In this document: positions 17,553 through 42,323 of the stretch, one piece after another
Numbering within the stretch: position 1 is the first letter of the stretch
How the letters are laid out: every line of letters starts with the position of its first letter
Assembly (NCBI RefSeq): GCF_002113885.1
Contig: NW_018480068.1
Location: forward strand, 115,565 to 179,564
Direction of reading: 5' to 3'
Length of the DNA: 64,000 nt
DNA from: Mizuhopecten yessoensis
Taxonomy: Eukaryota
Program-made: the position numbers and the translations under genes
The notes under the pieces: generated by a model
What the model was told of the DNA's origin: nothing
Database searches by the model: none
Seen by the model: only the letters and a program-made list of their open reading frames with translations

Positions 17553-20500
17553 ATGCATCAAGTTAGTTTCGTTTTGGTGTTCTTTAACACGCTCTTGTTT
17601 TGCACGTGTGGACCAGGATTTGCTGACGTTGACAGAAGTAAATATGAGGATGGAAAATCCCGTTTTGAAGTCATTGATAGTCAGGCAAGGTTACCCAAAT
17701 ATGGGCAGTGTTGGCAGAGTGCTATAGCGGTCATTCAGAAAGGCTGCAAACAGCTGACACATATTGTACAAAACCGATTAGCTTTGGCCTATTTAAACTG
17801 TTTTCTTGAGGATCAAGGCCGCTTGACCTATCCATGCGACGTGGAAGAATCAATCTCATCCTGTACAAAACATATGTCTGATGTTGACCGAGGATCTTTT
17901 ACAACGTTTTTTACATACACCCAAAACATTTGTTATTTTCTAGAATCACAGATTTGGCATCAAGAAACAGAACAAACCATAACACGATTAGCTCACAGTT
18001 CTGAAAATGTGGCTGACCGTCTTGAGGAAAGTAGCAAATTACAAGAAGCTATGATTGGACAACAAAATTTAACTCTACAAAATCAGGAAATCATTCTAGA
18101 TAAAGCTGCAAATTTAAGTGACATAATATCAACATCATCGGATAACATGCATGAACTGTATACAGAATTTAAAAAATCTACAATTGAACAAAAGCTGTTA
18201 ATAAATGACATGTTTGATAAAGTCACCAAGCTTCAAACTATGGTGCTTGGAGAATTTTCAGGATTTTATTCCATGATATACTATACAGTTTCTGTGATAA
18301 TGTCCTACCTATTGACCTCATCACAAAGGACGGCAAGTGCTCGATTCTGGCTGTTTGGTATTTTAACCATTGGAATAATTGCTGAGAGGGCCATGGTTTC
18401 CATCCTCAATGGTGCATCATCATTTCACGTCGACATACCCATGGAGACGGATCTTGAAGTAAATTATTTTAAAGCTTGTTAAGAAATATCATGCATTTTG
18501 ATGAAATCAATTTTAGCTGATAAGCCTTGGTAAAAAGAAGAGATCCTTGGGTATAAACAGGTTGCTACTATAATGAAAAGAGTATTTGCAAATTGGGAAA
18601 AATTTATGTAACTATACAGTATAGATGGATGGTTAACCTGTTTTTTCATTTTTACCTTGCTGTGGTAAAATACTAGCTATTTCTTACTGACTCTGCTAAG
18701 TAGAATTTAGAATTTCTCTCCAGCTCATTTGGCAAATAGTAAAACTAGTAAACCAGATGTTCCGAGTTCAACTTCGAGTGGAGGCATTGAAAAAATGACC
18801 CCTGTTACATTGGCTCCCATGTAGGGACCAGAGAAATATTGACAACCCAGAATAAATACTTTCACAAGAATCGCTATATGACACTTAGAAAACTTTGAGT
18901 GAGTTTTTTTCCTGGAGGGGGAGACTATGTCGCCCTGGTAAAATACTTACACTTCTTACTGACTCGGGTAGGGATAATTCGTCTTTAGCTTAATTGATAG
19001 AGCATAAGACTAGTGAACTAGAGGGTCTGGGTTTGACTCCAGTTCCCTTTCTAAACATATCCCTGTTTAAATAGGCCAATGTTTAACCCAGATATTGTCT
19101 TAACTGACCCTGTCTACCCCAGATACTGTAAAAACTGCACCCTGTCTTGCCCAGATAACGTATATAAGTAAGCTTCATGCCTAATCCAGGTTCTGCATGA
19201 ATGTGTTATTGGACCATGTCACTAAGACAGATACAGTCTATCTAGTTGCCTCAAAATTAAAGTTCTAGAGCCAATAAAAGGCTGCTTCCTTTAGCACAAA
19301 ATTGCTCGTTTTCCTCAATTAAAGAAAAATTTGGGAATATTAACAATTTCTTATTTTGATAAAAAGCAATTGATGTAGGAACAGACTTGCAAAATCTAGG
19401 TAGAAAAAACACTGAAACAATCTGTACATTCCAATCTTTCCATTTTTTCAGCGCAATATTGCTTTGTATTGCAGTTAACACTTTTTTTTCTGAAAGAAAT
19501 TCAACTTATTAATTAATTGCATATTTTGCCATTCAAAGGTAGGAAAACATCAATACCTTGGTCACTGTATATACATTTGTAGTTACATTTCCGTAGCTAC
19601 AAAGTGAATATTGTCTTTCGCTTTTAACTGCGAGACTATTCACTAATATTAGTTTGTAATTTCCAATGTGTATGTCAACATGCATGATAGCCATTACTAT
19701 GTGAACTTACTGTAAATCTACTGTATTGTAATTGTTAAGTGCCATAGAACTTTTTTGGGGGAATTTTGTTGCCATTCCCGTTGAAATTAGGAGTAAAGTA
19801 GTTATCTCAAATTGTCTTCAAAATGTCCCAATGTAATTTAAACAAAACGGTTTGTTTTCAGTGGATTATACAACATTTAATATCTAGAATAAGACTATAC
19901 CTAAACTGTATATCACGATTACATCTGAATTTCTAAGACAATAATTTATTTATTTGAACAACCAAAAAATTTAGGGGTTAAAAATCAGATTTATTTTATT
20001 AACTCCCGATTTCAGACATCATCTGGTCAGTTCCAAAACCACGGCTCTATTACCAAAATAGTGGATACAAGCCCTGCACAGGGATTTTCCAACCAAACAT
20101 TTGGTCCCCTATTTACCAGTGAGTGGCAAGCTATCGTGATACATGTTATGTTACACCAGTCCTGTGGTAATATATATCAATACAGCCTCTCCGTGTTGTG
20201 ACACTCTAATGCTGTAACCCATGATTTGGTATTTGAAGGAGATGGTGTACACCAACCAGTGGCTTTGCAGAAAGGTATGCGGAGGTTTGGCATTGGTCAT
20301 CCTAGCCATATTTGCATACCGTTATCGTGACATCAACACCATCAACAATGAACTCCTCATGGACATAAAACGACAGAACTCGGAGCTCCGGCAATACCTC
20401 TTAAACACAACACCGACAGGTGAGTATACTGGTACCTTAACCCTTTCACCCCTATATAACTTTGGTAGACTTGGCCATGCATTGATATGGACGTGTCCAT

Positions 20501-23097
20501 TATGGTCTACAGTGGTGAAAGGGTTAAGATCACCGGTGGGGGGAGGAGGAATTCAGTCAATTTGTCTGTGTGAGTCTTATGAAGTCTAAACTGTGTTTCA
20601 TGTACACCAACCTAAGATGACTGTTTGACATCTTTAGTTAAACTCTGGGAACCAAAAGAAAATTTATTAACAAATTACTTGATTAATCATCCAACGCATG
20701 AATTTTAGTATGTACATTTGTACGACTGAACCAGTAAATCACAAAGAGTTTCGAAATTGCATTTTTATTTTATTTTAGCTAACAATGAGGTTTTCAGGAA
20801 AACTAATCGTGTAAGATTGTATAAGTATTAGTCAAAATATGGTATGAACTTATAGGTGATGTCAAAATATGGTATGAACTTATAGATGATGTCAAAATAT
20901 CTTCACTGAAAATCAGAAAGGTATCATGATTATCATATTTTGTATTGTATTAATTTGATAACTTGATAACCCAAATATTAAACAAATGTAGCATTTAATG
21001 ATTGTATTGTATTATTTCTTGTCATTCTAACAGACAGTCACATGTGTCCTGAAATACTAGTACATGTACTGTTGACCAATAGTTATGAAATAAGTGATTT
21101 TTATGCCCCACCGGGAATGTAGTCCTAAAGGGTTGGTATGTTGTATGTGTAATACTCACAGGGTATAGCTTATATTTACTCATCCCATTGTTGGTTTTGG
21201 GAGCTTCAGAAGAAAAGCAGGATAATCACTATGTATTACACATGTGTAATTATGTCTGTTCAGGTACCTTTGGATTAAAAAATCAGGAGTTTTCTAATTC
21301 CCAATCCAGCATGCTGACCTCCTCTTCTCCATTGGCAGTAGCTGCAGATTGTAAGTATGAATCTGGTGGTCATAGCAACAGTAAACTGCTCCAGTATTGT
21401 AATCAGTGGAAGTTATCATTACCTGTAAGTCACTGTGGAGGAATCAGAAATATACTAGTGGATTGGCTGATAGTCGAAAATAATCCTGAATCAAGATACA
21501 CCTAATTAATTCATTAGGAAAGTTTTACAACCTTTTCAAATCTTTTAGAATGATGCAGAATGGCATTTTCTTATGTTGAAATTACTTTAAACAAACATAA
21601 TTCCTAACCTTGATTAAAATAGTTAATTAAGAGGTAATTTACAACTCGGAGACTAGAAAGGGTTTTAGTGTCATTCAAAACAATATGTGTTCAGTATTTA
21701 ATTAAAAATTAGTAACCTCCAACAGAAAGAAGGGATATTATTTATCGAACCTTTTACACCGGAAATATTAAAGTAAATATGTGACAACTGTTGAAATTGT
21801 ATTGTTGATATGGTTATAGAGGCTTAAAGCCTGACTCCATTATAATGAGTTGTAATATATTTCTAATTTTAGCAACAGGATATGAAACTGATTCTGCTGT
21901 TAGTGACTGCAGCTACTTCACGGATACTGAATCTGTAACCACGGGAACAGACCACACCTTCCAGCCAGCACTGACCAACTGGGAGGACTCGGAGAATGAA
22001 ACCTGTTCTTCTGTCACGCCGTCGGATATTTCTCGGATTACTCAACAAGTGACTGATTTTGGAAAACCATGTTCTGACTTGCCCTTAAATATTGATACCT
22101 GGGCCAAAACTGGTTTCTACAGACATTCTACACCAATTGCAAGTAAGTTTTATTTCCCAGTCGAACTGCCAGAAGTTACATACAAATAAAGTTTAGTAAT
22201 AAAACTATGTCTACATCAGGTGTATGTCTAAAAAAAGACCAGGGCTATTTCAGAAGTAAATATTTGGGAAAGAGGCACAATTGTAGCCCCCACTACCCAC
22301 AATTGTGTTTTTCCTATGGCCCACAGTACAACATTTAAGATTTTAGACCATGTGATTAACCATGACAGCACTCAGGTGTGTGATCAGACAAGTCTTATTA
22401 CTTATAACGTCTGTTTCTTGTCATGCCGTGTTAAATTTAATATATAATAAAAAAATAAAAAAATAAAATGAGGGGGGGGGGGGGATAAGGATACAACATT
22501 TTTCTTTTCTATTGTGTATTTTGTATTTTAAATCTTGCACTCAACTTTTTTTTTTTCAGAAAATAATGGTTCCGATCTTGATTCGTCCATAGCAGAATCT
22601 GTCAAACAAAGGCGGAATAGATCACAGACACCAGAGCAAGTAAGTTCTCACACTGCAAGATCTTAGTGTTTTTCTTTCAAAGCATGCAGTACTTTTACTA
22701 ATACATGTACTAGTATTATAGATTTGAGACGTGTGCATATACAAAAGGTTGAAACGTGTAAATTGTTATCAATAAAACTCACAAATGAGACCCCAGAAGG
22801 ATATGTATTGACACGAATGAAATCATACATAAAATATTCTTTGGAATGTTTGAATTTCTTTTCCATTCTTTACAGTGTACCAGCGATACAACGCCAAGAT
22901 ACTGTTTTAGACCGAGAACTAGACGTTTAAACGACAATCCTGTCACAAGATCGGAGTCTCCAAGGACATTTTCACGTGTGGTCAAACAACTGGAACGGAT
23001 TGCAGTGACAAACAGCATGTTGGCCACCACTTACACCATCAAAAGGAAAAGTAATATCTCCGATGTGTCAGATTATGATGGCGGTGAACATCGGTGA
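17553..23097 (+). CDS. GEX1/Brambleberry/Kar5-family nuclear envelope fusion protein, paralogue A (about 581 aa, 6 exons)
   Basis: Exons 17553-18458, 20239-20419, 21264-21350, 21873-22142, 22560-22639, 22876-23097; GT-AG, phase-consistent, 1746 nt including stop. Architecture: signal peptide; six-Cys domain CW-x-GC-x-RLALAYLNCFL-x-GR-x-YPC-x-C-x-TQNICYFL, matching the GEX1/Kar5/Bmb cysteine-rich domain; helical coiled-coil region; three hydrophobic segments (FYSMIYYTVSVIMSYLL, FWLFGILTIGIIA, VCGGLALVILAIFAY); Ser/Thr/acidic tail. Confidence 0.88.
18690..19070 (+). repeat. Degenerate dimeric tRNA-like repeat
   Basis: Two tRNA-like heads (cagctcatttgg...gagttcaact and tagcttaattgatagagc...gggtttgactcc), each followed by ccctgtt(t)a. 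Confidence 0.55.
20437..20527. mobile_element. 91-bp TTAA-flanked MITE (piggyBac-like)
   Basis: ttaaccctttcacc...ggtgaaagggttaa, 18 bp downstream of the paralogue A exon 2 donor. Confidence 0.75.
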
Positions 23098-25552
23098 TTC
23101 TGTACTGCGACTGAAAAACTTACCTCTGTGTGGGGTCAGTGCTGCTCAATGTGATAGCTGGGTTTGAAAAATGTTGGAAGTAATGTCTAGGTGCATATAT
23201 TTTAACCTCTTTAATGCAACCAACTTTTTCTCTGAAAATTCCCAATACACCCATTGTATGTAACTAAATTGTGATAGGGAAATAAGTTCTTTGGAGGTTT
23301 ACCGAGAAATGGTTTCTTGTAAAAATGTAATATCAGCATGATCAAGTCTAGATTGTTTGTCTTGGGCTAAAACTTCTACAGTAGAGTTGTTGGTCATCTC
23401 GTCACAGACACAGCTCAATGACCTTGTGGTCACAGTTCTTGCCAATACTCAGGTGTGTCACCAGACATTTTCTTAATCTTTTATACAATATACAACATTC
23501 ATTAAAGTAACCACCTCTAATTGTGTTCAAAGAAATATCTTGATTACTAATTAATCATATACAACACATTATAATGCTTATCACATAATGGTGTATAAGA
23601 AAATACTAACATCTCCATATAAACAGATGACATAAATATTGAAATTAATTATATTTGATTGTAGAGTGTTCCATGTCAAGTGACAGCTTTCATTCCATAA
23701 AGCTGGTATTGAATACATGTCCAAATGTTTATTTACGTGTATACGGTATGTCTGTTCCATTGACTACACATTACCACTAAAGGATAAACAATGTGTGTAT
23801 TTACTTACAGTAGTGTGCTATATTCTAATAAATCAACAAACTACATATCTACCAGTATGGAGCCTGTATGAAATCCATGTCAGTGATTTTTCAGCCTAAA
23901 TTTTACAGCAGGCTGTTCCTACATGAATTGTGAAATATTTGGCATTATTTTTACTATAATTGGGAAATATTCCTGGGTTTTTTTCCTCACTTTGGGAATA
24001 TTAAGCACTTTTTAGCCAGGGGAAGCAGACTGTATTTGACTGTGAAACTAGGCAAACAAATCACTGCATGTTTGCATGTTTTTTAATTTTCTTTTCTTGT
24101 TTACATATTTTGGTGTGCTTCAAAATGTTATTGCTGTTTTTATCCTTAAACTTAACTGAAAGTGTTTTTATTTTTTAATCTTGATTTTACAGATTGCTGT
24201 ATCTACATAAATTTGGAAAGGTATTCCTGTTTTATTTTGTCAAGAACAGTGCTTCACCCTGTATTCGACTGTAAAACAAAATCATGATGTGATAATGTAA
24301 ATTACCTGTTTTATAATTTGATTGATTTTTCACAGCTTTTATAATTATAAGATGTGTGTGTGTGGGGGGGGGGNTGATCTGGGGGGGAAATCCTCATATT
24401 GTCAGGAAATGAATGTCGGATGACTGGATTATGGAGTTGGTATGTAATCGGGTTAAAAAAAACAAGGATCAATTGTTTTATTTTATTTGTTTTATTGTTA
24501 AATATAAAGAATATGTTTTTCCCCTCAATATGGAGATGATCTATTTTGAAATATATACAGCAACTCTTATTGACCAGCTGGACGTTAGTTTGACTAACAA
24601 TTATGAAGAAAGAATCCTTTATTTTCAACGATTTATGTGTTCAGGTATATTGATCAAGAAATGACCAAAATTTACTAACATGGTTTTGTTGTTAATGTTG
24701 TATTTTGTTTTGTGTTTAAAAAACATCTTTTTTAAGTAAGAAAAGGTTTTTATCATATTGACTATGTCGTGGATTTTGCATATTTTTATAGTTTTATGTT
24801 TGTCTCAATAGATATTTTAATAGTTTTATGTTTGTCTCAATAGATATTTTAAGGAAAACAAATCAGTGCTCATTAGGACTTGTATGCATAAATATTTGAA
24901 ATACAGATATGTTTAATTCAATTATTAATATGATATTTTAAGTTACTTTTTTGTAATCTGGTGAAATTACATTATTCTTGTATATCTTAAAACAGAAATG
25001 AATATTGTATTTAAATCAAATTTGCCATGATACCAAGTTTCATTGTCTATATTTTGAAGTTGAAATTTTAGGATTATCTGTGCTATTGTCTGTAGGCATT
25101 TTAACAGGAATTGACATTTAATGTCAGATTATTTATTGACATTTCATGATTATTTATTGTTATAACATTTAATTGATTTTCTTTTAAATTTTGGAGAATT
25201 TTATTGTGGTATTATGTATAAAATGAGTATACATGTATATGGAAAGTAAATAAAGACACTTTGATATTGATTTGACATGTTTATACATATTATATATACA
25301 TTTGTTTTAAGATTCTAACACAAGATGACCTTGGTACAAGGTGTTGAACGTTTTCCTTCCCCACTAGTACTCTTTACCCTTGACATAAACACTGCTACAG
25401 CAGTAAGTGCTGTTTGATACATGAAGTACATGTGAGGGAGAGATTAGATGTCTTTTAATTGATAAACATAATTGGCAAATCACCTTTACGATAAATTTGA
25501 CCTGGAAAGAAATGACATATCATCTCCTTATGCATAATTATAAATATGTCAC

Positions 25553-25649
25553 CTAACCCTTTCACCCCTATGTAACTTCAGTAAACTCTTCCATGCTTTG
25601 ATCTGGATGAGTCCATTATGGTCTTCAGTACTAGTGGCGAAAGGGTTAA
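25553..25649. mobile_element. About 97-bp MITE, same family as 20437
   Basis: ctaaccctttcacccctat...gtccattatggtct...ggcgaaagggttaa; internal sequence aligns with the 20437 copy. Confidence 0.7.
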
Positions 25650-25815
25650 ACAGGGAATGGTGACATGTACTTTTTGGTCCATTTCCTCTCATCATCATGT
25701 TTAGCTCACCTGGCCCAACCTTGTTTTCTTGTACTCCTTCGATAAACTTGTATGGCACTAGCAGGTTTAAAATTGAAAATAAAATAGGTGAGCTATTAAG
25801 GCCCATGTGCTTCTT

Positions 25816-27675
25816 ATTAGCTCACCTGGCCAGGAAGACAAAGTTGAGCTGATGCCATACCTTGTCATCTGTGTGTCTGTCAGCAATTCCTTTAACTGAC
25901 TCCCTTGTTTGAACCACTGAATGGAATATTGCCAAATCTGTCTGGAGGAATCATCCTAATATGCAAGGGATTCAAAATTGTACGAATGGAGGAGGATAGA
26001 TTGGTGGGTCCAGAAAGAAGTAATTTGACCATGTTGCCTTAAAGAACTTCTCTTCTGTAACTATTGATTGAAGTTGGTAGGGAATAAACATTGTACAAAT
26101 TGAGCAACTGAACTCAAGAGGGGAGGACTAAAGGTTCAGTTTTTCCATATTGCTTTTATGTGACTTCACTAGAATTATGTGAGGTTATAACTTAAAAAGG
26201 AGATCCCACACTGGAACATATATATAATTGTTAAAGATAAAAATGAATACATTATATGCTACCAGGATTGATCTAGGGTCTAGCCCCACCCTGTTACACT
26301 CTATAAACATGTATCAACTGCTTGGTATGAAGAGATGACCAAATTCATGATATTAGATTCGACTCTTGACTAATATCCTGGGTCACAACTTAGAAACAGA
26401 TGAGATCTTCTCCGTATAACAATATATACATTTACTAAGTATAAAGAAACAAATACTCTCCCTATAACAATATATACATTTACTAAGTATAAAGAAACAA
26501 GTACTCTCCGTATAACAATATATACATTTACTAAGTATATGGAAACAAATACTCTCCCTATAACAATATATACATTTACTAAGTATATAGAAACAAGTAC
26601 TCTCCCTATAACAATATGTACATTTACTAAGTATAAAGAAACAAATACTCTCCCTATAACAATATACACATTTACTAAGTATAAAGAAACAAATACTCTC
26701 CCTATAACAATATACACATTTACTAAGTATAAAGAAACAAGTACTCTCCGTATAACAATATATACATTTACTAAGTATAAAGAAACAAGTACTCTCCGTA
26801 TAACAATATATACATTTACTAAGTATAAAGAAACAAGTACTCTCCGTATAACAATATATACATTTACTAAGTATAAAGAAACAAGTACTCTCCGTATAAC
26901 AATATATACATTTACTAAGTATAAAGAAACAAATACTCTCCCTATAACAATATACACATTTACTAAGTATAAAGAAACAAATACTCTTCCTGTAACCATC
27001 TACACATTTACTAAGTATAAAGAAACAAGTACTCTCCCTATACCAATATACACATTTACTAAGTATAAAGAAACAAGTACTCTCCGTATAACAATATATA
27101 CATTTACTAAGTATATAGAAACAAGTACTCTCCCTATAACAATATGTACATTTACTAAGTATAAAGAAACAAATACTCTTCCTGTAACAATCTACACATT
27201 TACTAAGTATAAAGAAACAAGTACTCTCCCTATAACAATATATACATTTACTAAGTATAAAGAAAAAAATGCTCATATGCTACCACATTTGCTCTGACGT
27301 GTTGGCCCACCCAGGGAGACTTGGATCCTGAGACATACTTTTGACAGAGATTTTCACCCCTAACCAGATATACAATTATTGCTGGTCATAAAGAGAAGAA
27401 TATAATCATGCTACAAGAATTGGCCTCTGGTTATGCATGAACCCTTAAACCTTAGGAACTTAGTCCTTTGGTCATAACAGTGAAACAGTTGCGATCACCA
27501 CCCTATAACAAATATAAAATTGCTGAGAATGAATATTTGGATACACATACTTTACCAAGATTGTTCTAAAGGCATAGCCTACTCCTGGGTCTTATTTGCA
27601 ATATCACTGTGGAAATATTTTCCTGCTATTGCTTAATATTAAGGAGAGCGATACAGACCCTCCAGGCCTCTTGTT
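25816..27675 (+). mobile_element. Degenerate HINE-like element enclosing the 48-bp array
   Basis: Starts ttagctcacctggcc...gagctgatgccat...tcatctgtgtgtctgtc; ends aggagagcgatacagaccctccaggcctcttgtt. Confidence 0.5.
26409..27267. repeat. 48-bp minisatellite, about 18 copies
   Basis: Unit tctccgtataacaatatatacatttactaagtataaagaaacaagtac; it produces spurious 16-aa-periodic ORFs in three frames. Confidence 0.96.
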
Positions 27676-28370
27676 TATTGATATCATTCCAATGCACCAC
27701 AAGGTAACCATATCTAGCTTTCTGACCTGAAAGCCACGGTTACGTCCCCTTAATACGCAGTAATCGCCAGAAAGTTACTGCTCACCTGATTTTTATGATT
27801 TTAAATATATTTGGCCTTGGAGGCGGATCGAAGTTGTTGTGTCACAGTATACCAAGTTGTATAGCCCTACATTACATATATAAACAGGGAACTATTAGGA
27901 GTCGTCTACATCCCCTAAACTTGTAGAAGTTAAATTATGTTTATTACATACATCACAGGTACTAGCCAATATTATACTTGGGTATCGCGTGACGTCACGA
28001 TTTACTGGGCCGCACACTGGACGGCAACTCGCGAGACTCGGCGACTCTGCGAGTTGAGAGTTCACAGTGAATCGAATGAGGCAATGACGACCATTAGCAG
28101 GTGTAAACAATCGACAAAAACAAGTAATTACCGCTCAAGTTTGGATAAAGAATCATCAGAAAGGTACACAGAGAGGCTTAAATTAATATTGACAGACGAG
28201 GCTAGTACCTGTGGTCATAGCGCTGCAAAAACGTAAAGCGTTGCTAAAATATTTGGGAATCATTGATCGATTGATAACCGTTGTTGTATTCAAACGAAAA
28301 GGGAACAATGTTCGAGTTTATACAACATCTAATGCTTGGAGCAGTATTTCATAAAATGCGACGAAATATT

Positions 28371-28900
28371 CATTTTACAACAGGTTGTGTGATTTCCCCA
28401 TCATTTTACAACAGGTGGTGTGATTTCCCCATCATTTTACGACAGGTTGTGTGATTTCCCCATCATTTTACCACAGGTTGTGTGATTTCCCCGTCATTTT
28501 ACGACAGGTTGTGTGATTTCCCCATCATTTTACTACAGGTTGTGTTATTTTCCCCATCATTTTACAACAGGTTGTGTGATTTCCCCATCATTTTACGACA
28601 GGTTGTGTAATTTTCCCATCATTTTACGACAGGTTGTGTGATTTCCCCATCATTTTCCAACAGGTTGTGTGATTTCCCCATCATTTTACAACAGGTTGTG
28701 TGATTTCCCCATCATTTTACGACAGGTTGTGTGATTTCCCCATCATTTAACAACAGGTTGTGTGATTTCCCCAACATTTTACCACAGGTTGTGTGATTTC
28801 CCCATCATTTTACAATATGTTGTGTGATTTCCCCCATCATTTTACAACAGATTGTGTGATTTCCCCATCATTTTACAACAGGTTGTGTGATTTCCCCATC
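28371..28900. repeat. 31-bp minisatellite, about 17 copies
   Basis: Unit catcattttacaacaggttgtgtgatttccc. Confidence 0.95.
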
Positions 28901-28908
28901 TTCCAAGG

Positions 28909-29023
28909 CATTATAGCCTTACCAGACAGTGTGTCATTATTATAGCCTTACCAGAAAGTGTGTCATTATTATAGCCTTACCAGACAGTGTGTCATTATTA
29001 TAGCCTTACCAGACAGTGTGTCA
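28909..29023. repeat. 29-bp tandem repeat, about 4 copies
   Basis: Unit cattattatagccttaccagacagtgtgt. Confidence 0.9.
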
Positions 29024-31800: not shown

Positions 31801-34800
31801 ATGCACAGCATGAACATTATGCTTGTGCTGAGTTTCAGTACTATCAGTTTATCATGGTGTGCGAATGTTTTTTTTAATTTAAACAAGAATAAATATGAAG
31901 AAGGTCGAAATCTGTACGAGATCATGAACAGCCATACCAAGCGTCCCATATACGGTCAGTGTTGGAAGGACACCCTAGTGAAAATCAAGACTGGCTGTCG
32001 GGACTTAACCGATGTTGTTCAAAGTCGTATGGCGTTATCATATCTTAACTGTTTTCTCAAGGTTAATGGGAGGACCGTTTACACGTGTGGTGTAGAAGAT
32101 CCTGTTCATGAGTGTACACAAGCCATGTCTGATACAGACATGAGTACATTTGCGACATTTTTTACTCAAACACATAACATTTGTTATTTTCTTGAAGCTC
32201 AAAATTGGCAGAATGAAGCAGAGCAGACGATATCAAAATTAGCAAAAAGTTCGGCAAACGTGGTTGAAATTTTGGAAGACAGCGCAATTCACCAACAAGC
32301 AATAATACACCGACAAAACCTCACTTTAGAAAATCAAGACATAATTTTATTGAAAGCGACCAATCTTAGTAATGTAATTTTAACAGCGTCTACAAATGTC
32401 TTCGATTTTTTTTCTGTATTGGAAAAGAGGACATTTGACCAGAAACTCTTGATAAATGACATTTTCGATAAGGTTGCAAAGTTGCAGACGACCGTCCTGG
32501 GAGGCTTTTCTCGATTTTACTCCTTGGTATATTACACCTTGTCTGTTATAGTGTCCTGTTTATTGACTTCTGCCAGCCGAACAGCGGGCGCAAGGTTCTG
32601 GCTGTTAGCTATAATGACAGTCAATATCATAGTCGAGAGGTTGTTTATATATTACTTCAGTGGATCTTTCTCTGTAAAGGAGGTCAATAAAATGACCGAG
32701 GCTGAAATTGAGGTGAGTATATCTTACCTTACCTTATGTACATTGTCAAATATTGCAACGATTGAAGCCCAAATCAATAAAGATTAATGATATTTTGCAT
32801 AGTTTCTGTTATCAACAAGCATACCTTATGGCATGGTGCGGCGTCCGTCGTCCGTCCGGCGTCAACTTTTTACTTTAAACAACTTCTTCTGAATATCAAA
32901 GTTAAACCAAAATACCAAGTTTGATCAAATGAATGACCTTGACCCACTTTCAAAGTCACGGGGGTCAAATGTCATAAAATCTTCAAACGACTTCTTCTCA
33001 ATACCCAAAAGGCCCAGGGTACTGATATTGGGCCTGTAGCATGCTGGGATGAAGTGTTACTAAGTTTGTTTAAATTAATGACCTTGACCCACTTTTAAGG
33101 ACATAGGGGTCAAATGTCTTAACATCTTCAAACAACTTCTTCTCAATAACCAAAAGGCACAGGGTACTGATATTGGGCCTGTAGCATGCTAGGATGAAGG
33201 GTTACCAAGTTTGATCAAATAAATGACCTGACCCACTTTCATGGTCACAGGGTTCAAATGTCTTAAAATCTTCAAACCACTTCTTCTCAATAACCAAAAG
33301 GCACAGGGTACTTATATTGGACCTGTAGCATGCTGGGATGAAGGGCTACGAAGTTTGTCCAATTGGATGACTTTGACCAACTTTCAAGGTCACAGAGGTC
33401 AAATGTCTTAAAATCTTCAAATGACATCTACTCAATAACCAAAAGACCAAGGGTACTGATATTGGGCCTGTAGCATGCTGGGATGAAGGACTACCAAGTT
33501 TGTCCAAGTTAATGACCTTGACCCACTTTCAAGGTCACATGGGTCAAATGTCTTAAAATCTTCAAACAACTTCTTTCAAATAACCAAAAGGCCCAGGGTA
33601 ATGATATTGGGCATGTAGCATGCTCGGATGAACGGATGACAAGTTTGTTCCTAAGAATGACCTTGACCCACTTTCAACTTAATGTCCTTGCTCACAACAT
33701 GGTCACAGGCGTCATACGTTTAAATCTTTTAATAGGTTCTTATGAATCAAACACTGATATTCTGCCTTTAGCTGTATTTTAGTCCACTTTTAAGATAACA
33801 AGTGTGAGATAAATACCAGGTGAGCGATGCAGGCCAGTTGGGCCTCTTGTTAATTTTTGTTGTTGTAAAAACTTAATGCTTTTCATACTATTAAAAATGA
33901 CACTTATCGCATTGCATTTTATTTTTGTTTACTGTCAAAAGGTTGTCCATTGCACGTGACTATTTTTCCATTCCGATATTTCACACCGGGTATCCCGATA
34001 CAACAAACACGGAGCAGACTCAAATCGGGAAAGTGAGCGGAAGTGTTTGGGAAATTAAGCTGAACAACGGTCTCTATTTCAATTTATTTTCTACTACTTT
34101 CAAGAATGGTCATTAGTGTACATACCTGTGAAATAAAGAATTGAAACGACGACATTGAAGGTATTCGATGCATCATGTTTTTATACTTTAACTTTAATGA
34201 GGTTTTCCTTTGAAACTACAAGACGAGTATTATGTGCGCTTTGGAACTATTTTACGTAGTAATGATTGGAGACACCTGTGAGTAATACCGTGTTGCCTTT
34301 TTGGATTGGTTGTAATTTTGATGCACAATAACCCACATATTCAGGTAAAGGTTGGGCATATCGTACGCGGATAAAACGGACACAATAAACAATTGTTATT
34401 ATTTGAATGCATGATTTTCGCGCAGGTGGTCTAAACAGAACTTAAAAAAACATTTTGCGCCCAAAAAACATTGTATTTCTATATTGTTAGTAACTTTCTT
34501 CAAACAAATTATCGGCTGAAACTCTGACTGTGCGTTCTTTGTGCCCAAAAATGACAACTCCTATCATAAAAACGCAGATTGTTTTTGCGAATTGTAGTTT
34601 CTGAAATCTGTGTTACTATTTTCAGTAGATGTCACCAAATCTTACTTACTGTGTAAAATAGTTAAGAGAGTACACACAACTATTTATAGGTAATACAATG
34701 GTAAAAAAAGAAAGAAAAATAAAGTGTCAAAATTAAATGAAGCACCAAATACCTTCAACAATGTCGTTTCAGCTGTAATTTTCACAGATATATCTACACC

Positions 34801-37800
34801 AATGAGTGGCCTTGACAGTAGTAAATAAACTGAAATATAAACCAATACCTTTAATTTTCCAAAAACTGTCATTAACTTGTTACAATATTGATAAATTTGA
34901 CTATGTGGAATTTGTACCTGATCTGGTTCAGTGTGCCGGAATACCTGGTGCGTATTTAAAGCGTGGCATCACGTTTCATAAACATCATAGTAAGAAAACG
35001 TCGGTGATATTATGATTGGTCTAATTTGTCAAAGTATAAATATATAAACGTTATTTTCAGATTTACACCTTAAACATGTATTTCATAAGTAAAATGTAAC
35101 GTCATAATATGCAAAAAGAATCATACTGTTGTTTGCTATTTATAAAGGATGGGTGTCTATAAGGCCCTTTTTTGGGCCCCGGTATATTCGGATTTTCACC
35201 TCCCTATTTTGTTCAAAGATGTCCTATTGTATAACAAGCGGAACAAGAGTCCTAGAGGGCCTGTATCGGTCACCTGAAATATGTTAAAAATTATTGGTAT
35301 GAAGTAAAGATATAGCACTCCATGGTAGGTGCTGTAAGTACATAAGAAATTCAGAAAGATCCATCCAGTACTTGAGATATAACGAGAACAAACTTCAAAC
35401 AGAGCCCCACCCTATGCCCCTAAGGGGGTCATACCCAACAAGTATACAAGAACCGAAGGATGCTCCAGACTAAATAAGGATAAAATCCCTTAATCCCGAT
35501 GGTCGAAGAAGGATTTAAACGGTTTTACCTCTATTCCTCCTATTGGGCCCCGCCCTTCTGCCCCCTGGGAGACCACATCCACTGCTTATACAAAATTGAG
35601 TCCCCTTGGCTCAAGGATGCTCCAGACTAAATTAGGATAAAATCCCTTAATCCCTATGGTAGAAGAAGGATTTTAAAGGTTTTACCTCTATTTCCCCTAT
35701 TGGGCCCCGCCTCTCTGCCTCAGGTGGGGGGGGGGGGACAAAATCCTGTCATTCCTACAGAAGAAGAAGAATTTTGAAGATTTTGCTATATTTCCCCTAT
35801 TGGGGCCCTCTTTTCTGTCCCCAGGGGGGGCACACTCGCTGTTTTTACGAAATTGAGTCCCTTTTGCCCAAAGATTATCCAGACTTAATTAGGATAATAT
35901 CCCTTAATATCTATGGTAGAAGAAGGATTATAAAAGTTTTACCTCTATTTCCCCTATTGGGCCCGCCTCTCTGCCTCAGGTCCCAGGGGGTTCCCCTTCA
36001 CCTACGGATCCTTCAGACCAAATGTGGAACAAATTCTTTCATTCCTACAGAAGAAGAAGGATTTTAAAGAATTTGCTATAATTCCCCTATTGGGCCCGCT
36101 CCTCAGCCCCAGGGGGGCCAGACCCACAATTTATACAACATTTGTTCCCCTTCCCCCAAGGATGCTTCTGACCAAATTTGGTCAAAATCTGCTCAGTCGT
36201 TCATGACTAGTAGTGTTTTAAAGGAAAAGTGGACTACGGACGCTGCTGTATGGCATAAGCTCAGGTGAGCTAAAAGAAAACTACGGTAAAACTTTTACCG
36301 AAAGTGGTATTCTTAGGGTACCAAAAGGGGTAGGGTAAATCACAAATATAGTTTCCTGTTTTCAAAATGATCTTAAAAACAAAAATAATACCATTTCTGT
36401 TTTTGAAAACATGTATAAATTAGACAAGCATATGTAAGAGAATGAAAAATGACAGGAATTCAATCGTCACCTAAAGATTGTTTATAAATAACGAAGGATT
36501 AAGACAGGGGGTTGTTTCAGGTAATTTCCAAATGAAAAAAGTTTTGATTTCTCAATAATTTCCTTTGTTATTAATATTTTGACTGGAAATTTACAACTTT
36601 ACTCATTTAAGTAGACTTACATAAATTCCATATTGACTACATACTTTCCTTCTGTTTCATACCGAGTTATGGCTTCTGGACACATATCAAACTTGGCTAT
36701 TTCAAATATCTCTCAATCTTAAGCAAATTAAAAGGTGCAGGACACCCTTTATATGCTATAAGTATAAGATATCAATTGTTAGTATTGTATATTACATATA
36801 TCATATAATATTTTCTCAACATCTGTGGCTGAAGTGAGTTCCAGGTCCTGATTTGTGTTTTTTACTTATCAAAGTTACCTTACAGATCAAAAATGGCATT
36901 TGCCATCACAACTACTGTGAAAATGATTGATTTAATATATGAAGTTTGATTTGCTTAGTTTTTCCGCTTGTCATATAATAGGACATTTTTGAACAAAATA
37001 GGGAGGTGAAAATTCGAATATACCGGGGCCCTAAAAAGGGCCTTATAGACACTCATCCTTTGCATTATTCGCTGAAATATATATATTTGCATGAAAATGA
37101 ATAATTTGTTATCAAGGAGACCGTTTACACATACCAATGGTTGTGTAGAGAGGTGAGCGCAATCCTGTCTATTGCTGTCCTCGTCTTCTACATATACATC
37201 TACAGAAACCTCAAAGTCATCAACAACCAGCTGCTGCTGAAACTGAAGAAACAAAACTCGGAGCTCAAACATCAAGTCAAGGAACTCTCTAAAGATATTT
37301 CTATAATTCGTCATTACATCATGAATCAACCAATCGCAGGTGGGTACTACGGGAACACGTTCTAGACGGTTGTGCAATAAGTGTTTATTTACATATTTGT
37401 ATTCAATTTAAATGTTCGGCATCTTGGAAGAGTAGAACCTAGCCTTATCAACTGTGAAATTTTAACTACATAATCAGGGACGGTTGGTATGTAAACAGGC
37501 ATATCAACTGTGAAATGTTATCTACATAATCTAATCAGGGATAATTGGTATGTAAACAGGCATATCAACTGTGAAGTGTTAACGACACAATCAGGGATGG
37601 TTGGTATGTAAACAGACATATCAACTGTGAAATTTTAACTACATAATCAGGAACGGTTGGTATGTAAACAGGCATATCAACTGTGAAATGTTATCTACAT
37701 ACTCAGAGATGGATGGGATGTAAACAGACATATCATCTGTGAAATATTAACTACATAATGTACATAATCAGGGACGGTTGGTATGTAAACAGACATATCA

Positions 37801-40800
37801 ACTGTGAAATGTTATCTACATAATCAGGGATGGTTGGTATGTAAACAGACATATCAACTGTGAAGTGTTAACGACACAATCAGGGATGGTTGGTATGTAA
37901 ACAGGCATATTAACTATGAAGTGTTAACTGCATAATCAGGGATGGTTGGTTTGTAAACAGGCATATCAACTGTGAAATATTAACTACATAATGTACATAA
38001 TCAGGGATGGTTGGTATGTAAACAGACATATCAACTGTGAAGTGTTAACGACACAATCAGGGATGTTTGGTATGTAAACGGGCATATCAACTGTGAAGTG
38101 TTAACGACATAATGTACATAATCAGGGATGGTTGGCATGTAAACAGACATATCAACTGTGAAGTGTTAACGACATAATGTATATAATCAGGGATAGTTGG
38201 TATGTAAACAGGCATATCAACTGTGAAAATATTATGACACAATCAGGGATGTTTGGTATGTAAACAGACATATCAATTGTGAAGTGTTAACGACACAATC
38301 AGGGATGGTTGGTATGTAAACAGGCATATCAACTGTGAAGTGTTATCTACATGAATGTACATAATCAGGGATGGTTGGTATGTAAACAGACATCAACTGT
38401 GAAATATTATCTACATAATGTACATAATCAGGGATGGTTGGTATGTAAACAGGAATATTATCTGTGAAATGTTCTCTACATAATCAGGGATGGTTGGTAT
38501 GTAAACGGGCATATCAACTGTGAAGTGTTAACGACACAATCAGGGATGGTTGGTATGTAAACAGACATATCATCTGTAAAAAAATATTAACTACATAATG
38601 TACATAATCAGGGATGGTTGGTATGTAAACAGGCATATTATCTGTGAAATGTTCTCTACATAATCAGGGATGGTTGGTATGTAAACAGACATATCAACTG
38701 TGAAATGTTATCTACATAATGTACATAATCAGTGATGGTTGGTATGTAAACAGACATATCAACTGTGAAGTGTTAACNCAGGGATGGTTGGTATGTAAAC
38801 AGGCATAGCATCTGTGAAGTGTTAACTACATAATATACATAATCAGGGATGGTTGGTATGTAAACAGACATATCATCTGTGAAGTGTTAACTACATAATG
38901 TACATAATCAGGGATGGTTGGTATGTAAACAGGCATAGCATCTGTGAAGTGTTAACTACATAATATACATAATCAGGGATGGTTGGTATGTAAACAGACA
39001 TATCATCTGTGAAGTGTTAACTACATAATGTACATAATCAGGGATGGTTGGTATGTAAACAGGCATATTAACTGTGAAGTGTTAAGGACATAATCAGGGA
39101 TGGTTGGTTTGTAAACAGGCATATCATCTGTGAAATATTAACTACATAATGTACATAATCAGGGATGGTTGGTATGTAAACAGGCATATCAACTGTGAAG
39201 TGTTAACGACACAATCAGGGATGGTTGGTATGTAAACAGGCATATCAACTGTGAAGTGTTAACGACATAATCAGGAATGGTTGGTATGTAAACAGACATA
39301 TCAACTGTGAAGTGTTTACGACATAATGTACATAATCAGGGATGGTTGGTATGTAAACAGGCATAGCATCTGTGAAATGTTATCTACACAATCAGTGATG
39401 GTTGGTATGAAAACAGGCATATCAACTGTGAAGTATGAACTACACAATCAGGGATGGTTGGTATGTAAACAGGCATATCAAATGTGAAGTGTTAACGACA
39501 CAATCAGGGATGGTTGGTATGTAAACAGGCATATCAATTGTGAAGTGTTAACTACATAATCAGGGATGGTTGGTATGTAAACAGACATATCATCTGTGAA
39601 ATGTTATCTACATAATCAAATCAGAGATGGTTGGTATGTAAACAGGCATATTATCTGTGAAGTGTTAACTACATAATCAGGGATGGTTGGTATGTAAACA
39701 GGCATATCAACTGTGAAATATTATGTGAAATATTAACTACATAATCAGTGATGGTTGGTATTTAACTAGTGTGGAAGGTCAACCATCGTCAAATTAAGTC
39801 CACTTTGTTACAGTCTGGTAGTGAACTGGCCATTACTATTGTATACAGATTAAGAAAAGGAGTCTGGATATCATTTCAAATTCTGGACGTAAAAGAAATG
39901 TATGTTTTACTTGAAATGATATTTTGATGAACAAATATCACATTTTCTTCTGTATATGCAATTAATCGATCTGTACTCCTATATATATACTCCTTTCTTT
40001 CAGTATTAACATATTTTATTGACATGAGGACAGTCGAAAGGATATAGGTAAACATAAGGCCAGTTTATTCTATCAATATTATCTCTCGATTCTTTCTAAG
40101 ATCGGAACACAAAATGTGTCTGAATCCTAAAGAAATTGTTCAGGGAGCCAAAACTTTTATCAAACTGCAATAAACGATATTGTGTACGATGCTAGACTGT
40201 TGTTGGTTATATACAAGACCCAGATTTGGCTTTGTCTATGCAAGATAATCGATGGTTATAAAGTTATTGAATTTTCGTTCTACCTAGACTGTTTTACTGT
40301 GAAATCGAATATTTTCATGGGGTCCAAATTTTGTGGTTTCCCGAAAAACACCATTTCGAGGGTGCATGCATTCGTGGATCACGTGTTCCGACTCATACGG
40401 AGTATGGCTTTGTTAAACTTCGATGCAGATTACCCACGAAATCAACGAAATTAAAAACCCCACGAAAAATAGTGATTTCAGTTATTATTAAAAAGTGAAG
40501 AAATAGCATATGGTTCTCATCAAGGTTTTATTTAAATGTGTATGTTTTAAGTTTAATTCATTTTGCGTATGCAAATGGTAAAGTTTCTTGAATCCGTTTA
40601 GTAAACTAAGCGAGTATGAAAATAGACATCTACACTGTATGTAGCATTTAACTAGTTCTATTTGACATTGGAATGGTTAAATTATACTTTTGAATGCTAC
40701 AGATTCTGACGATTCGGATGCTGAATCATCAAGTAAAATCCTTCCGGCACGAAGGAAACAGAAGAAGTCGATATCTCCTCTACAGGTAAATACGTGATCT

Positions 40801-42323
40801 CACAGTTGTTGAAGACAGAATGAAAATGCTGTTGAATTGATAAAATATGATAGAAATAAAAGTAATTATATTGAAAATTGTTTTCTGGTCGATCAATTTT
40901 CAATGCTTTTTATAGTCGAAGTGTTTTATTAGTTTAAGTATTTTTTTGAATATTGTGGCTCATGGTAAAGAAGGGCGAGTGTCTAACTAATATTAGACAT
41001 AATTATGTTTTCCTTGCACAATCGTTCATATTTGTCATATTTAGTTAGGTCTTTGTTCGTGGTTCACAGCAATGTGTTTGTTTGTTTATTCGTTAAATAT
41101 ATGTTACACCAAACGTTAACAGTTATGGATTTAACAAAAACTTGTTAGATATCCAGTTCAAATAAATAATAGAAGAATCAGAAACAACAAAACGTGAATG
41201 GTTGAAGAAGGTATATTGAATATTACGTTTGAAGTATGAAGGACCGGTGAAAACATAGAAATGATGTGTTACCAAAAGGCTACCAAAGAATTCGGGAATA
41301 AAAATGGAAGATTGTTATCATTACTATTGGAGAAAGCTGTAACATAGATGATAAATAATAACGTCAGTAAATCTTGAAATGTGTACCATTGATATGTAGG
41401 TTTTGCCAACGACGGCCAACGCCAACGAAACTAATATAGAGGCAGACGATCGGAGTGAAATCACTGTGGAAACTAGTGATCGGGAGCAAGCGGTAGCCAC
41501 TTCCGGTACAGAGACATCATCTACAAGTTCCGGTGCCGAAGGATCAGGAAGTAGGTCAGAGGGACTTGGAACTTCTCCAATTGCAAGGAGATCAATGACA
41601 ACGTCCGACACAGAGAGATCGGTATCCACTTCCGGTGCAGATATGACTCCCTTAGTAGACACGCCACAGGTAAATGTCTAGAATCATTCAAATTTAACTT
41701 TTACACATAGGAGGGTAAGCTGAAAATAATACAAAATTTAAACAATAGGTCAGAGTTGAAACAGGACTATTTTTTGGAGAGATACATGATTAATCCTAAA
41801 AAACGCTTTCTGTCTTGCACTATGATATGTTTTAACCAAGAGAACGTATTTACTTAGGGACACGCATCAAATAAAATAAAAAGTCGTTCCCAAGAAGTAT
41901 CCCCCGAAAACCAATCTTTACTCAGGAGTTTCCCATATACACAGTGAGACTACACCAAATCAACCCTGACACTATGAATGTTTAAAATCATGTGTTCATT
42001 AATTGTACATGATGGTCAAGTCATGTATCTTTAATGGTCAGAATCGTTTATGTGTAAATTTTAATTATTGATCAGAATCATTTATGTATTAATTGTAATT
42101 ATTGTCCATTATAATGTATGTGTTAATTGTTATTATTGATCAGAATAAATTAGGTGTTAATTGTAATTAACGGTCAGAATAGGTAGATGTTAATTGTCTT
42201 ATAATTTATCATTATCATGTTTGAGTTAAATGCAATTATCTGCATCATGGTATGTGTTGTTTGCAATTTCAGTCATCCGGGTATTCGCTAAGATCGATGA
42301 GTCGTCCGAGAACGCCACCGTGA
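31801..42323 (+). CDS. GEX1/Brambleberry/Kar5-family protein, paralogue B (about 510-525 aa); last exon uncertain
   Basis: Exons 31801-32712, 37117-37339, 40703-40785, 41400-41669, then probably 42273-42323 (SSGYSLRSMSRPRTPP*) or alternatively 41858-41947. Exons 1-2 are clearly homologous to paralogue A: all six Cys, RMALSYLNCFL, THNICYFLE, KLQTTVLG, LLTS..RTA.ARFWL, QWLCR, KQNSEL. Introns 1 and 2 have the same phases as in A. The start codon could be the ATG at 31801, 31810 or 31819. Confidence 0.82.
32815..33851 (+). mobile_element. HINE-like element with a 145-bp internal tandem array (about 5 copies)
   Basis: (cgtc)n microsatellite at 32841-32863; 145-bp units starting aatgaccttgacccactttcaaggtcac; terminus caggtgagcgatgcaggccagttgggcctcttgtt with a short palindrome. 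Confidence 0.8.
35145..37060. mobile_element. TIR element (about 100-bp TIRs, Kolobok-like by inference) carrying a nested HINE
   Basis: aaggatgggtgtctataaggcccttttttgggccccggtatattcg... versus ...cgaatataccggggccctaaaaagggccttatagacactcatcctt; a partial third copy is at 45960-46143. Confidence 0.8.
35242..36275 (-). mobile_element. HINE-like element nested in the TIR element
   Basis: aacaagagtcctagagggcctgtatcggtcacctga ... about 156-bp internal repeats ... gctcaggtgagctaaaa. Confidence 0.8.
37446..39765. repeat. 56/65-bp minisatellite, about 40 copies, in paralogue B intron 2
   Basis: Unit tatcaactgtgaagtgttaacgacacaatcagggatggttggtatgtaaacaggca, with an optional 9-bp atgtacata insertion. 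Confidence 0.96.
40295..40484. mobile_element. Tc1/mariner-type MITE (degenerate)
   Basis: tactgtgaaatc...ttttcatgggg / ccccacgaaaaatagtgatttcagtta inverted termini with TA ends. Confidence 0.55.

Follow-up and report, generated by a model that had tools for sequence, protein, structure and literature searches.

Nuclear-envelope location and a requirement in nuclear fusion have been established for Kar5, GEX1 and Brambleberry (Bmb). The GEX1 proteins of plants and protists are described with a signal sequence, a Cys-rich domain (CRD), coiled coils and three transmembrane (TM) segments (PMC10609895, PMC7586128), and Bmb with two TM segments (PMC10609895). For Kar5, a luminal coupling of the inner and outer membranes has been proposed (PMC4291462). 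Mps3 anchors Kar5 at the spindle pole body, and the use of a nucleosome motif is not known for Kar5. How these proteins reach the right membrane and fuse nuclei is the question addressed by the tail motif described below. In scallops, pronuclei have been reported to fuse, as seen by light microscopy (PMC3215693).

Two tandem genes of the scallop Mizuhopecten yessoensis, A and B, encode proteins with the same signal sequence, CRD, coiled coils and three predicted TM segments as plant and protist GEX1 (Arabidopsis GEX1). Compared with plant GEX1, the animal subfamily adds a disordered tail carrying a Y-x-L-R-x-R motif, and in the scallop it is represented by two diverged tandem copies. The CRD model gave a structural TM score of 0.78 to the plant GEX1 cluster and of 0.72 to a chordate cluster of 605 aa named 'putative Brambleberry', indicating a similar fold in zebrafish Bmb. 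The closest chordate cluster, however, was an uncharacterised one of 504 aa (0.95), ahead of Brambleberry (0.72), in an Atlas ranking and not a Bmb tree; the herring and shark members have 466-487 aa. Brambleberry orthologues are recognised by two TM segments, whereas three are predicted in both scallop proteins. The CRD is also common to yeast Kar5p/Tht1 (Pfam PF04163), and the Atlas feature scores of 0.82-0.89 to Tht1 clusters are leads only. From these models, A and B are members of an animal GEX1-like subfamily with three predicted TM segments, which appears separate from Brambleberry; the 'brambleberry' label on some family members is automatic database naming. Since A and B are apparently not Brambleberry orthologues, the zebrafish karyomere function is not simply transferable. 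A role in pronuclear and karyomere fusion would be expected by analogy with Bmb, and a nuclear-envelope location and fusion role are presumed by carry-over from Kar5, plant GEX1 and Bmb. In the literature searched, these genes are unnamed and no functionally tested member of the three-TM subfamily was found; Ning et al. 2013, outside that literature, may describe two animal subfamilies.

The reading that we favour, at somewhat better than even confidence, is that A and B are chromatin-tethered nuclear-envelope proteins of GEX1 type forming an asymmetric pair, in which B would be a diverged specialist without the C-terminal helix of A.

Two intact copies in tandem

A and B are same-strand paralogues whose ATGs, at 17553 and 31801, lie 14.2 kb apart; 8.7 kb separate the stop of A from the start of B (Table 1). 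The gene order around the pair is ATG7 - A - B - TMEM187 - HCFC1. Gene A encodes 581 aa in 6 exons and gene B 512 aa in 5 exons. All frames are open, and the models are those of RefSeq XP_021343218 (P0001) and XP_021343217 (P0052), respectively. The tandem pair in M. yessoensis is real and both copies are intact, as the preliminary description of this DNA had stated. A profile search of the window (the whole stretch of DNA analysed, 64 kb) returned A and B alone as genes of the family, and no remnants of the A tail exons in the B introns or downstream of the B stop.

Over 332 core codons, A and B are 52% identical, in agreement with the strong divergence, to about half of residues, estimated previously by eye. 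The six CRD cysteines (53, 65, 83, 95, 104 and 127 in A; 54, 66, 84, 96, 105 and 128 in B) are invariant in A, B and the aligned members (97- and 90-sequence alignments). Intron 1 is in phase 0 and intron 2 in phase 1 in both genes, with the same AAG/GAG acceptor; the cysteines, phases and acceptor had all been correctly recognised before. The shared acceptor and intron positions are as expected from common descent, and another bivalve has intron 1 at the same site (read-through ORF P0033 compared with spliced P0054).

The signal sequence corresponds to a hydrophobic stretch at residues 6-24 in both proteins, detected by hydropathy and folded as a helix in the models. After the CRD, predicted helices (110-183 and 199-254 in A; 111-190 and 202-255 in B) form a luminal coiled coil. 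Three TM helices are predicted in both models, at about 235-254, 263-291 and 298-330; by hydropathy, TM2 and TM3 are clear and TM1 is weaker. The sequons 172/187 and 173/188 are kept in both. Given the three predicted TM helices and the signal peptide, the tail would lie on the cytosolic or nucleoplasmic side, if this topology is right.

Pfam gave no family above cut-off for the A or B core and no Tht1 (PF04163) match to exon 1 of either gene; Tht1 was also absent among the 25 of 84 Pfam families shown for 90 members. A search of the PDB by sequence found no solved relative, Foldseek returned nothing at E<=0.001, and VIA-align produced generic helical bundles only (best Z 9.4). Prediction of a complex between the A and B cores scored 0.06 in two single-sequence runs without controls, a value that speaks neither for nor against an A/B pair.

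Gene B is transcribed and spliced. The joints 40785>41400 and 41669>42273, both GT..AG, were read in contigs of RNA-like runs, the exon 2/3 join was present in 4/4 runs examined, from 4 studies, and exon 1 was detected in 14 RNA-like runs of 7 studies (0.93-1.00 of words). None of the listed runs is recorded as RNA, their RNA-like nature being shown by the spliced joints in the four examined. In four runs almost none of the B words occurred, which was given no weight. The contig depths, about 7 to 136, are unfit for ranking expression. The joints, together with XP_021343217, confirm the 3' exons of B that had been proposed from the sequence.

Table 1. Features of genes A and B (positions in the 64-kb window)
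Feature	Positions	Strand	Remarks
A exon 1	17553..18458	+	signal peptide, six-cysteine CRD, luminal coiled coil, TM1, TM2 (aa 1-302); phase-0 donor
A exon 2	20239..20419	+	TM3 and post-TM helix (aa 303-362); AAG/GAG acceptor (20238/20239); phase-1 donor
A exon 3	21264..21350	+	phase 1-1; disordered tail; agrees with XP_021343218 (P0001)
A exon 4	21873..22142	+	phase 1-1; acidic S/T block; W-x-x-TG motif common to other molluscs
A exon 5	22560..22639	+	phase 1-0; acidic stretch followed by a basic one, with TPEQ at the end
A exon 6, last coding	22876..23097	+	motif and C-terminal helix; stop 23095-23097
A motif copy RYCFRPR	22897..22917	+	family Y-x-[L/F]-R-x-R, Y517/R520; candidate anchor to the acidic patch of the nucleosome
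A-only ESP..F..V..LE..NS element and predicted helix 537-569	22954..23058	+	ancestral in molluscs; missing from B; pLDDT about 90
B exon 1	31801..32712	+	signal peptide, CRD, coiled coil, TM1, TM2 (aa 1-304); phase-0 donor
B exon 2	37117..37339	+	TM3 and lengthened post-TM helix; AAG/GAG acceptor (37116/37117); phase-1 donor
B-specific 14-residue coil extension	37267..37308	+	placed by alignment by eye
56-bp satellite in B intron 2	37446..39717	.	fills the intron; outside the protein
B exon 3	40703..40785	+	phase 1-0; DSDDSD acidic block; PARRKQKK at 40744-40767
B exon 4	41400..41669	+	phase 0-0; S/T/G-rich disordered spacer
B exon 5, coding part	42273..42323	+	stop 42321-42323; 3' UTR continues to 42828 in one contig
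B motif copy GYSLRS	42279..42296	+	Y500/R503; nine residues upstream of the stop

The tails and their common motif

The tails of A and B are unalignable pairwise, the local score of 39 being reached by 1095/2000 shuffles. This part of the preliminary description held, as did the features it had named in each tail: an acidic S/T block and RYCFRPR..NP..ESP in A, and a longer post-TM coil, PARRKQKK, an S/T/G-rich exon 4 and a GYSLRS end in B. Its view that the tails had been replaced did not, since only B changed and the motif was kept. On comparison of the sequences, A retains the ancestral mollusc tail, and the tail of B is remodelled and shortened with retention of the motif. B has neither the W-x-x-TG motif nor the C-terminal helix.

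Exon 2 of B is longer than that of A by 42 nt (14 codons), and the predicted post-TM helix spans residues 336-373 in B versus 334-359 in A; the two-heptad coil extension is common to Mizuhopecten B and Argopecten B. The DSDDSD acidic block is kept in Argopecten B. PARRKQKK was rejected as a B-specific NLS because it is missing from Argopecten B and basic patches occur in A too. The sequences GYSLRS (B) and RYCFRP (A) are copies of the same family motif and lie in the same last exon after a phase-0 intron. The end of the Argopecten B tail, whose motif copy is RYSLRSR, matches the A-type tail profile (i-E 5e-5, with 2 sequences searched), whereas that of Mizuhopecten gave E 2 and no alignment. 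B exon 3 has the same phases, 1-0, as A exon 5 (p 0.019 among 12 comparisons, which fails correction). The exon comparison suggests that B lost the two phase-1 exons of A; in an alternative register, the fourth exons of the two genes could correspond instead.

Across the family, the motif is present in 82/101 tails, against a mean of 2.85 and a maximum of 7 in shuffles. The consensus is YNLRxR: YNLR.R occurs in 53/101 tails and the exact YNLRSR and YNLRPR in 12/101 each, so that one or the other of the validated hexamers is present unaltered in 24/101 tails. Y517 and R520 (A numbering) are conserved to 90% or more across 97 sequences, and the bearers include sponge, annelid, nemertean, amphioxus, louse, shark and herring. 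Nineteen of the 101 long members are without the motif in the annotated sequence; C. virginica reads YNMR. In 21/82 members, including those of sponge, louse, shark and herring, the tail ends <=25 residues past the motif. The scallop copies are off consensus, with YCFRPR in A and, in Mizuhopecten B, YSLRSM, which has no Arg two places past the anchor. Both have a Tyr three places before the Arg and a hydrophobic residue just before it (Y517-C-F-R520 in A, Y500-S-L-R503 in B). In both models the motif region is a low-pLDDT coil, which would face the nucleoplasm or cytosol if the three-TM topology is right. The density of S/T-P is twofold within 15 residues of the motif (80 tails), and 0/500 random placements were as dense. 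The motif is short (four to six letters), and basic motifs could also function in import or in docking of another kind.

A candidate nucleosome anchor

Lamin A, with YNLRS, and PFV Gag, with YNLRPR, are described as binding the acidic patch via Tyr and Arg (PMC12527912, PMC12125541, PMC6021111). The lamin A tail and prototype foamy virus Gag have the same Tyr-x-Leu-Arg core as the family consensus YNLRxR, also in a disordered region. Both are, however, unrelated to the family, in which the motif sits on a membrane protein and binding is predicted only. In the family literature searched, 'YNLR' was absent and no link between motif and family was found.

In the mechanism that we propose, A and B would each reside in the ER/nuclear-envelope membrane, and the Y-x-L-R-x-R motif, borne on a long disordered tether, would dock into the H2A-H2B acidic patch. 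The Arg would serve as the anchor and Tyr and Leu would occupy the pocket, which is the arrangement in lamin A and foamy-virus Gag; the neighbouring S/T-P sites may act as a cell-cycle switch. Docking would concentrate the protein on chromatin-coating membranes (pronuclei, karyomeres), and the luminal CRD and coiled coil could act in fusion by linking the outer to the inner membrane, in line with the Kar5 proposal. In B the chemistry would be the same, minus the putative partner or self-association surface of the C-terminal helix of A. Without this surface, B would therefore be a specialised version (in stage, tissue or strength) and not an obligate second subunit. If true, a membrane protein joins the small number of nucleosome anchors known from the nuclear envelope. 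The scallop pair is a natural deletion experiment, as the motif is retained in B and the C-terminal helix is gone.

The strongest competing reading, unlikely but deserving weight, accepts the evolutionary account and takes Y-x-L-R as a signal for import, for retention or for phosphatase/kinase docking, with no chromatin tether. The shortness of the motif and its basic flanks fit such a role, and the Arg-rich tail of plant GEX1 has been suggested to be an RXR ER-retention signal (PMC7586128). However, the invariant Tyr, Leu and Arg have the spacing of the lamin A acidic-patch motif and are not a basic run, and the exact validated hexamers in 24/101 tails argue in the same direction. The chromatin-tether reading also has a broader form, which we advance tentatively and hold to be rather unlikely: a second, non-Brambleberry GEX1/Kar5-type protein, present from sponge to fish, would bind nucleosomes via a lamin-A-like YNLRxR under proline-directed phosphorylation and couple chromatin capture to nuclear membrane fusion, and scallops would have split it into full-length and helix-less copies for different fusion events.

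Age of the pair and fate of B

Argopecten irradians carries both the A and the B type, and a Mizuhopecten-only duplication was rejected (p-AU 0.001); by these comparisons, the duplication is older than the Mizuhopecten/Argopecten split. Between A and B, 41/57 four-fold sites differ, which is near saturation. The dN/dS ratio is about 0.1 (bootstrap median 0.10, 97.5% 0.22; 332 codons), a pairwise value for both branches and not B alone. Furthermore, the B core is 72% identical to its Argopecten orthologue versus 42% in the tail. These data bear out the earlier proposal of an old, selectively retained pair; an untranscribed B or a dN/dS near 1, named there as evidence to the contrary, was not observed, as B is spliced and the ratio is about 0.1.

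The trees used 23 rows in one case and 20 in another, of 32 aligned. The stem of B measured 0.84, and the path between the two scallops 0.45 for B versus 0.19 for A. Relative-rate tests found B faster in 16/16 comparisons (p<0.05 in 14), and of 73 family-conserved core columns, 10 were broken in both B sequences and 2 in both A sequences. By these estimates B is the fast copy, at two to three times the rate of A. As an instance of asymmetric divergence, the A/B duplication is by itself modest. B fell inside the bivalves with a support of 100/99 and had a scallop-side sister in 866/1000 bootstraps; a placement of B outside all bivalves was not rejected in two tests (p-AU 0.073 and 0.14). On the trees, B probably arose on or near the scallop stem, with a loose dating. 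Octopus and P0027 fell inside the bivalves in two trees, a position that we regard as a long-branch artefact. Synapomorphy counts were too few for placing B, and a metagenome scan for orthologous DNA found none.

It is improbable that B is a largely redundant duplicate, of dosage type or relaxed, with ordinary drift of its disordered tail. B keeps the six cysteines, the sequons, the three TM helices and the motif, it is still faster than A after the Mizuhopecten/Argopecten split, and an end <=25 residues from the motif is, from its occurrence in 21/82 members, a viable ordinary form. However, after a long stem the same 10 consensus-breaking residues were fixed in both B orthologues, the exact two-heptad insertion fits a shift followed by constraint, and the gene was retained over saturated synonymous time.

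The preliminary description had favoured a fusion system with two components or with a partition by sex or stage, for example between egg and sperm pronuclei or between karyogamy and karyomere fusion. We consider this reading, with the two components taken as obligate, quite improbable. Two old, intact and constrained genes, with B spliced, would suit it, as would the different tail end and the B-specific changes fixed in two genera. Against it, both the core and the tail of A resemble those of the one gene present in other molluscs, and A thus bears no sign of a half-function ceded to B. In the searches made, other molluscs manage with the A type alone, and non-exhaustive searches found only this type for Pecten maximus and Ylistrum balloti. 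The detection of B exon 1 in 14 RNA-like runs from 7 studies, of unlabelled tissues, indicates no narrow window of expression. That B is a much older, pre-bivalve paralogue lost or missed elsewhere is highly improbable: A is no further from abalone (55%) than from B (52%) and the constraint outside all bivalves was not rejected (p-AU 0.073), but the B type was seen in two scallops alone, the position is tandem, the free trees put B in bivalves, and the sister set lay outside them in 8/1000 bootstraps.

A 3' UTR scan for maternal-mRNA elements gave small counts in AT-rich DNA and was given no weight.

The tail motif and the two tails

The motif Y-x-[L/F]-R (family consensus YNLRxR) was surveyed in the best 150 representatives of 802 matches, including 101 proteins of at least 400 aa. 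Past residue 340 it occurs in 82 of these 101 long members versus 2.85 in shuffles; 53 contain YNLR.R, and YNLRSR and YNLRPR were found in 12 each. It is absent from 19, several of them plainly truncated or mis-modelled. In an alignment of 97 sequences, picked from full-length-looking proteins, the Tyr and the Arg each show at least 90% conservation. In the 80 tails scored for S/T-P dipeptides, their density is twofold higher at up to 15 residues from the motif, a level reached in 0/500 random placements. In lamin A, YNLRS docks on the H2A-H2B acidic patch, the Arg serving as anchor and the Tyr and Leu lying in a pocket (PMC12527912); in foamy-virus Gag, nucleosome binding and the capture of mitotic chromatin depend on the same Tyr and Arg, within GGYNLRPR (PMC12125541, PMC6021111). 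The consensus of the GEX1-like tails shares the YNLR core with these sequences; the scallop copies, YCFRPR in the conserved paralogue A and YSLRSM in the fast-evolving paralogue B, depart from the family consensus. For the interest of the pair, the motif counts for more than the duplication. A S-S-D-E/D-like acidic tag lies in the last 15 residues of 22 of the 101 long members, and a clear copy is absent from both scallop genes.

The preliminary description regarded both tails as replaced. They are indeed not pairwise alignable (score 39; 1095/2000 shuffles as high). The A tail is nevertheless ancestral, because its layout (acidic block, W-x-x-TG, Y-x-L-R, NP..ESP..F..LE..NS) is seen in an alignment of molluscs and horseshoe crab; in the structure model its last element is a confidently predicted helix (537-569). 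B lacks W-x-x-TG and the C-terminal helix, stops nine residues past the motif and, in both scallops, has a post-TM helix 14 residues longer. The last exon of each gene starts with the motif, preceded by a phase-0 intron, and the A-type tail profile matches the end of the Argopecten B tail (i-E 5e-5); the Mizuhopecten B tail gave no match to this profile. The B tail is thus remodelled and truncated, with the motif retained, rather than swapped. Such short ends are common: 21 of the 82 motif-bearing members stop within 25 residues after the motif, and examples come from sponge, louse, shark and herring.

Activity, constraint and origin of B

B is a live gene. Among 24 listed runs, none recorded as RNA, 0.93-1.00 of its exon 1 words are present in 14 RNA-like runs from 7 studies; exon 1 is also present in six runs of unspecified kind, and four contain next to none of these words. 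Four runs were mapped to 39800-43950; each has exon 3 joined to exon 4 and exon 4 to exon 5, plus a loose end identical to the end of exon 2. The run contigs give about 320-400 bases before the ATG, provided the model holds. The stretch 42631-42866 of the 3′ UTR is covered by numerous unrelated contigs in each of the four runs and is likely a dispersed repeat. Argopecten irradians has a B orthologue (XP_069141990, plus the Logan protein P0062) and an A orthologue, on contigs of equal length. The A-B comparison gives a pN of 0.29 and a pS of 0.74, with differences at 41 of 57 four-fold sites; the bootstrap dN/dS, a check proposed in the preliminary description, is 0.10 (97.5%, 0.22), a figure pooling both branches.

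The cores of the Mizuhopecten and Argopecten orthologues are 85% identical in the case of A and 72% in that of B; the tails share 150/208 and 54/129 aligned residues, respectively. Unique changes are more numerous in B in 16/16 relative-rate tests, 14 of them at p<0.05. Of the 73 core columns conserved across the family, 10 are broken in both B proteins, for instance by E to G before TM1 and D to N after TM3, and two in both A proteins. In a tree of 20 of 32 rows, long outgroups omitted, B is nested in bivalves (100/99), in a cluster (85/84) that also contains the scallop A sequences and three further proteins; its sister contains scallop-side sequences in 866/1000 bootstraps. Constraints joining B to four named pectinid A proteins (0.31), to these plus P0054 of another bivalve (0.50), or placing it outside all bivalves (0.073) were not rejected. 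A duplication within Mizuhopecten only was rejected (p-AU 0.001). Among the matches listed by word-based searches limited in length and number of candidates, Pecten maximus and Ylistrum balloti have A types only. Two near-identical A-type copies of Tegillarca granosa, P0044 (KUTeg_021107) and P0061 (KUTeg_020590), fall in the same 90% cluster, on contigs of equal length, and are explained either by recent duplication or by faulty assembly.

Family placement and putative function

The Kar5/GEX1/Brambleberry layout, as defined in PMC10609895, PMC7586128 and PMC9324357, comprises a signal, a Cys-rich domain (CRD), coiled coils and two or three TMs; A and B have this layout. Neither gave a Pfam match to Tht1, nor any match to solved structures in sequence and structure searches. 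The Atlas model of the B CRD has a TM score of 0.95 against an uncharacterised chordate cluster, as compared to 0.78 for plant GEX1 and 0.72 for Brambleberry, a separate chordate cluster. Together with the three TMs, this model-based ranking suggests that animals have a GEX1-like subfamily alongside Brambleberry. The members P0162, P0029 and P0020 are filed under misleading source names (mitochondrial ribosomal protein VAR1, imp4-like), and surveys may have overlooked the subfamily for this reason.

By analogy, A and B are most likely ER/nuclear-envelope proteins whose candidate tail motif would grip nucleosomes and whose luminal part would couple membranes, as proposed for Kar5 (PMC4291462). 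They would act during pronuclear or karyomere fusion (PMC4003239); scallop pronuclei are reported to fuse (PMC3215693). B would be a diverged specialist without the terminal helix of A. For the egg/sperm partition or two-subunit A/B machine proposed in the preliminary description, we found no positive evidence. Among the papers searched, none dealt with the A/B genes or with the motif in the GEX1-like family, and PMC10120013 and PMC7041684 gave nothing further on molluscs.

Gene models and locus

The spacing, common strand, six cysteines, intron phases and AAG|GAG acceptors described for the pair were all confirmed in the window, and the core identity of 52% agrees with the earlier estimate. 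The common acceptor is simple descent; intron 1 has an identical site in another bivalve. As read from the window, A encodes 581 aa in six coding exons and B 512 aa in five, with open frames and every intron GT-AG; the Mizuhopecten yessoensis proteins XP_021343218 (P0001) and XP_021343217 (P0052) are identical to the respective models. A six-frame profile search detected no third copy in the window.

Coordinates of the exons, flanking genes and satellite arrays
Feature	Position	Strand	Remark
A exon 1	17553-18458	+	window reading
A exon 2	20239-20419	+	window reading
A exon 3	21264-21350	+	window reading
A exon 4	21873-22142	+	window reading
A exon 5	22560-22639	+	window reading
A exon 6	22876-23097	+	window reading
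B exon 1	31801-32712	+	window reading
B exon 2	37117-37339	+	window reading
B exon 3	40703-40785	+	window reading
B exon 4	41400-41669	+	window reading
B exon 5	42273-42323	+	window reading
ThiF-domain gene exons	3534-7757	-	Pfam match at 4691-5035
TMEM187, single coding exon	48408-49217	-	flanking gene
HCFC1	from ~53200	+	flanking gene
Satellite array, 28/56 bp unit	8624-12021		
Satellite array, 48 bp unit	26409-27265		
Satellite array, 31 bp unit	28370-29023		
Satellite array, 145 bp unit	32913-33677		
Satellite array, 56 bp unit	37446-39717		
Satellite array, 146 bp unit	45141-45411		

At 31801-31923, the GenBank model OWF35097 (P0032, 471 aa) begins at Met42 and thus misses the B signal peptide; the 512-aa RefSeq model includes it, and no additional in-frame ATG precedes its start. 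From its motifs we take the flanking ThiF-domain gene on the minus strand to be probably ATG7. HCFC1 and TMEM187 form a head-to-head pair, presumably the same layout as in human. Two of the satellite arrays lie in B introns.
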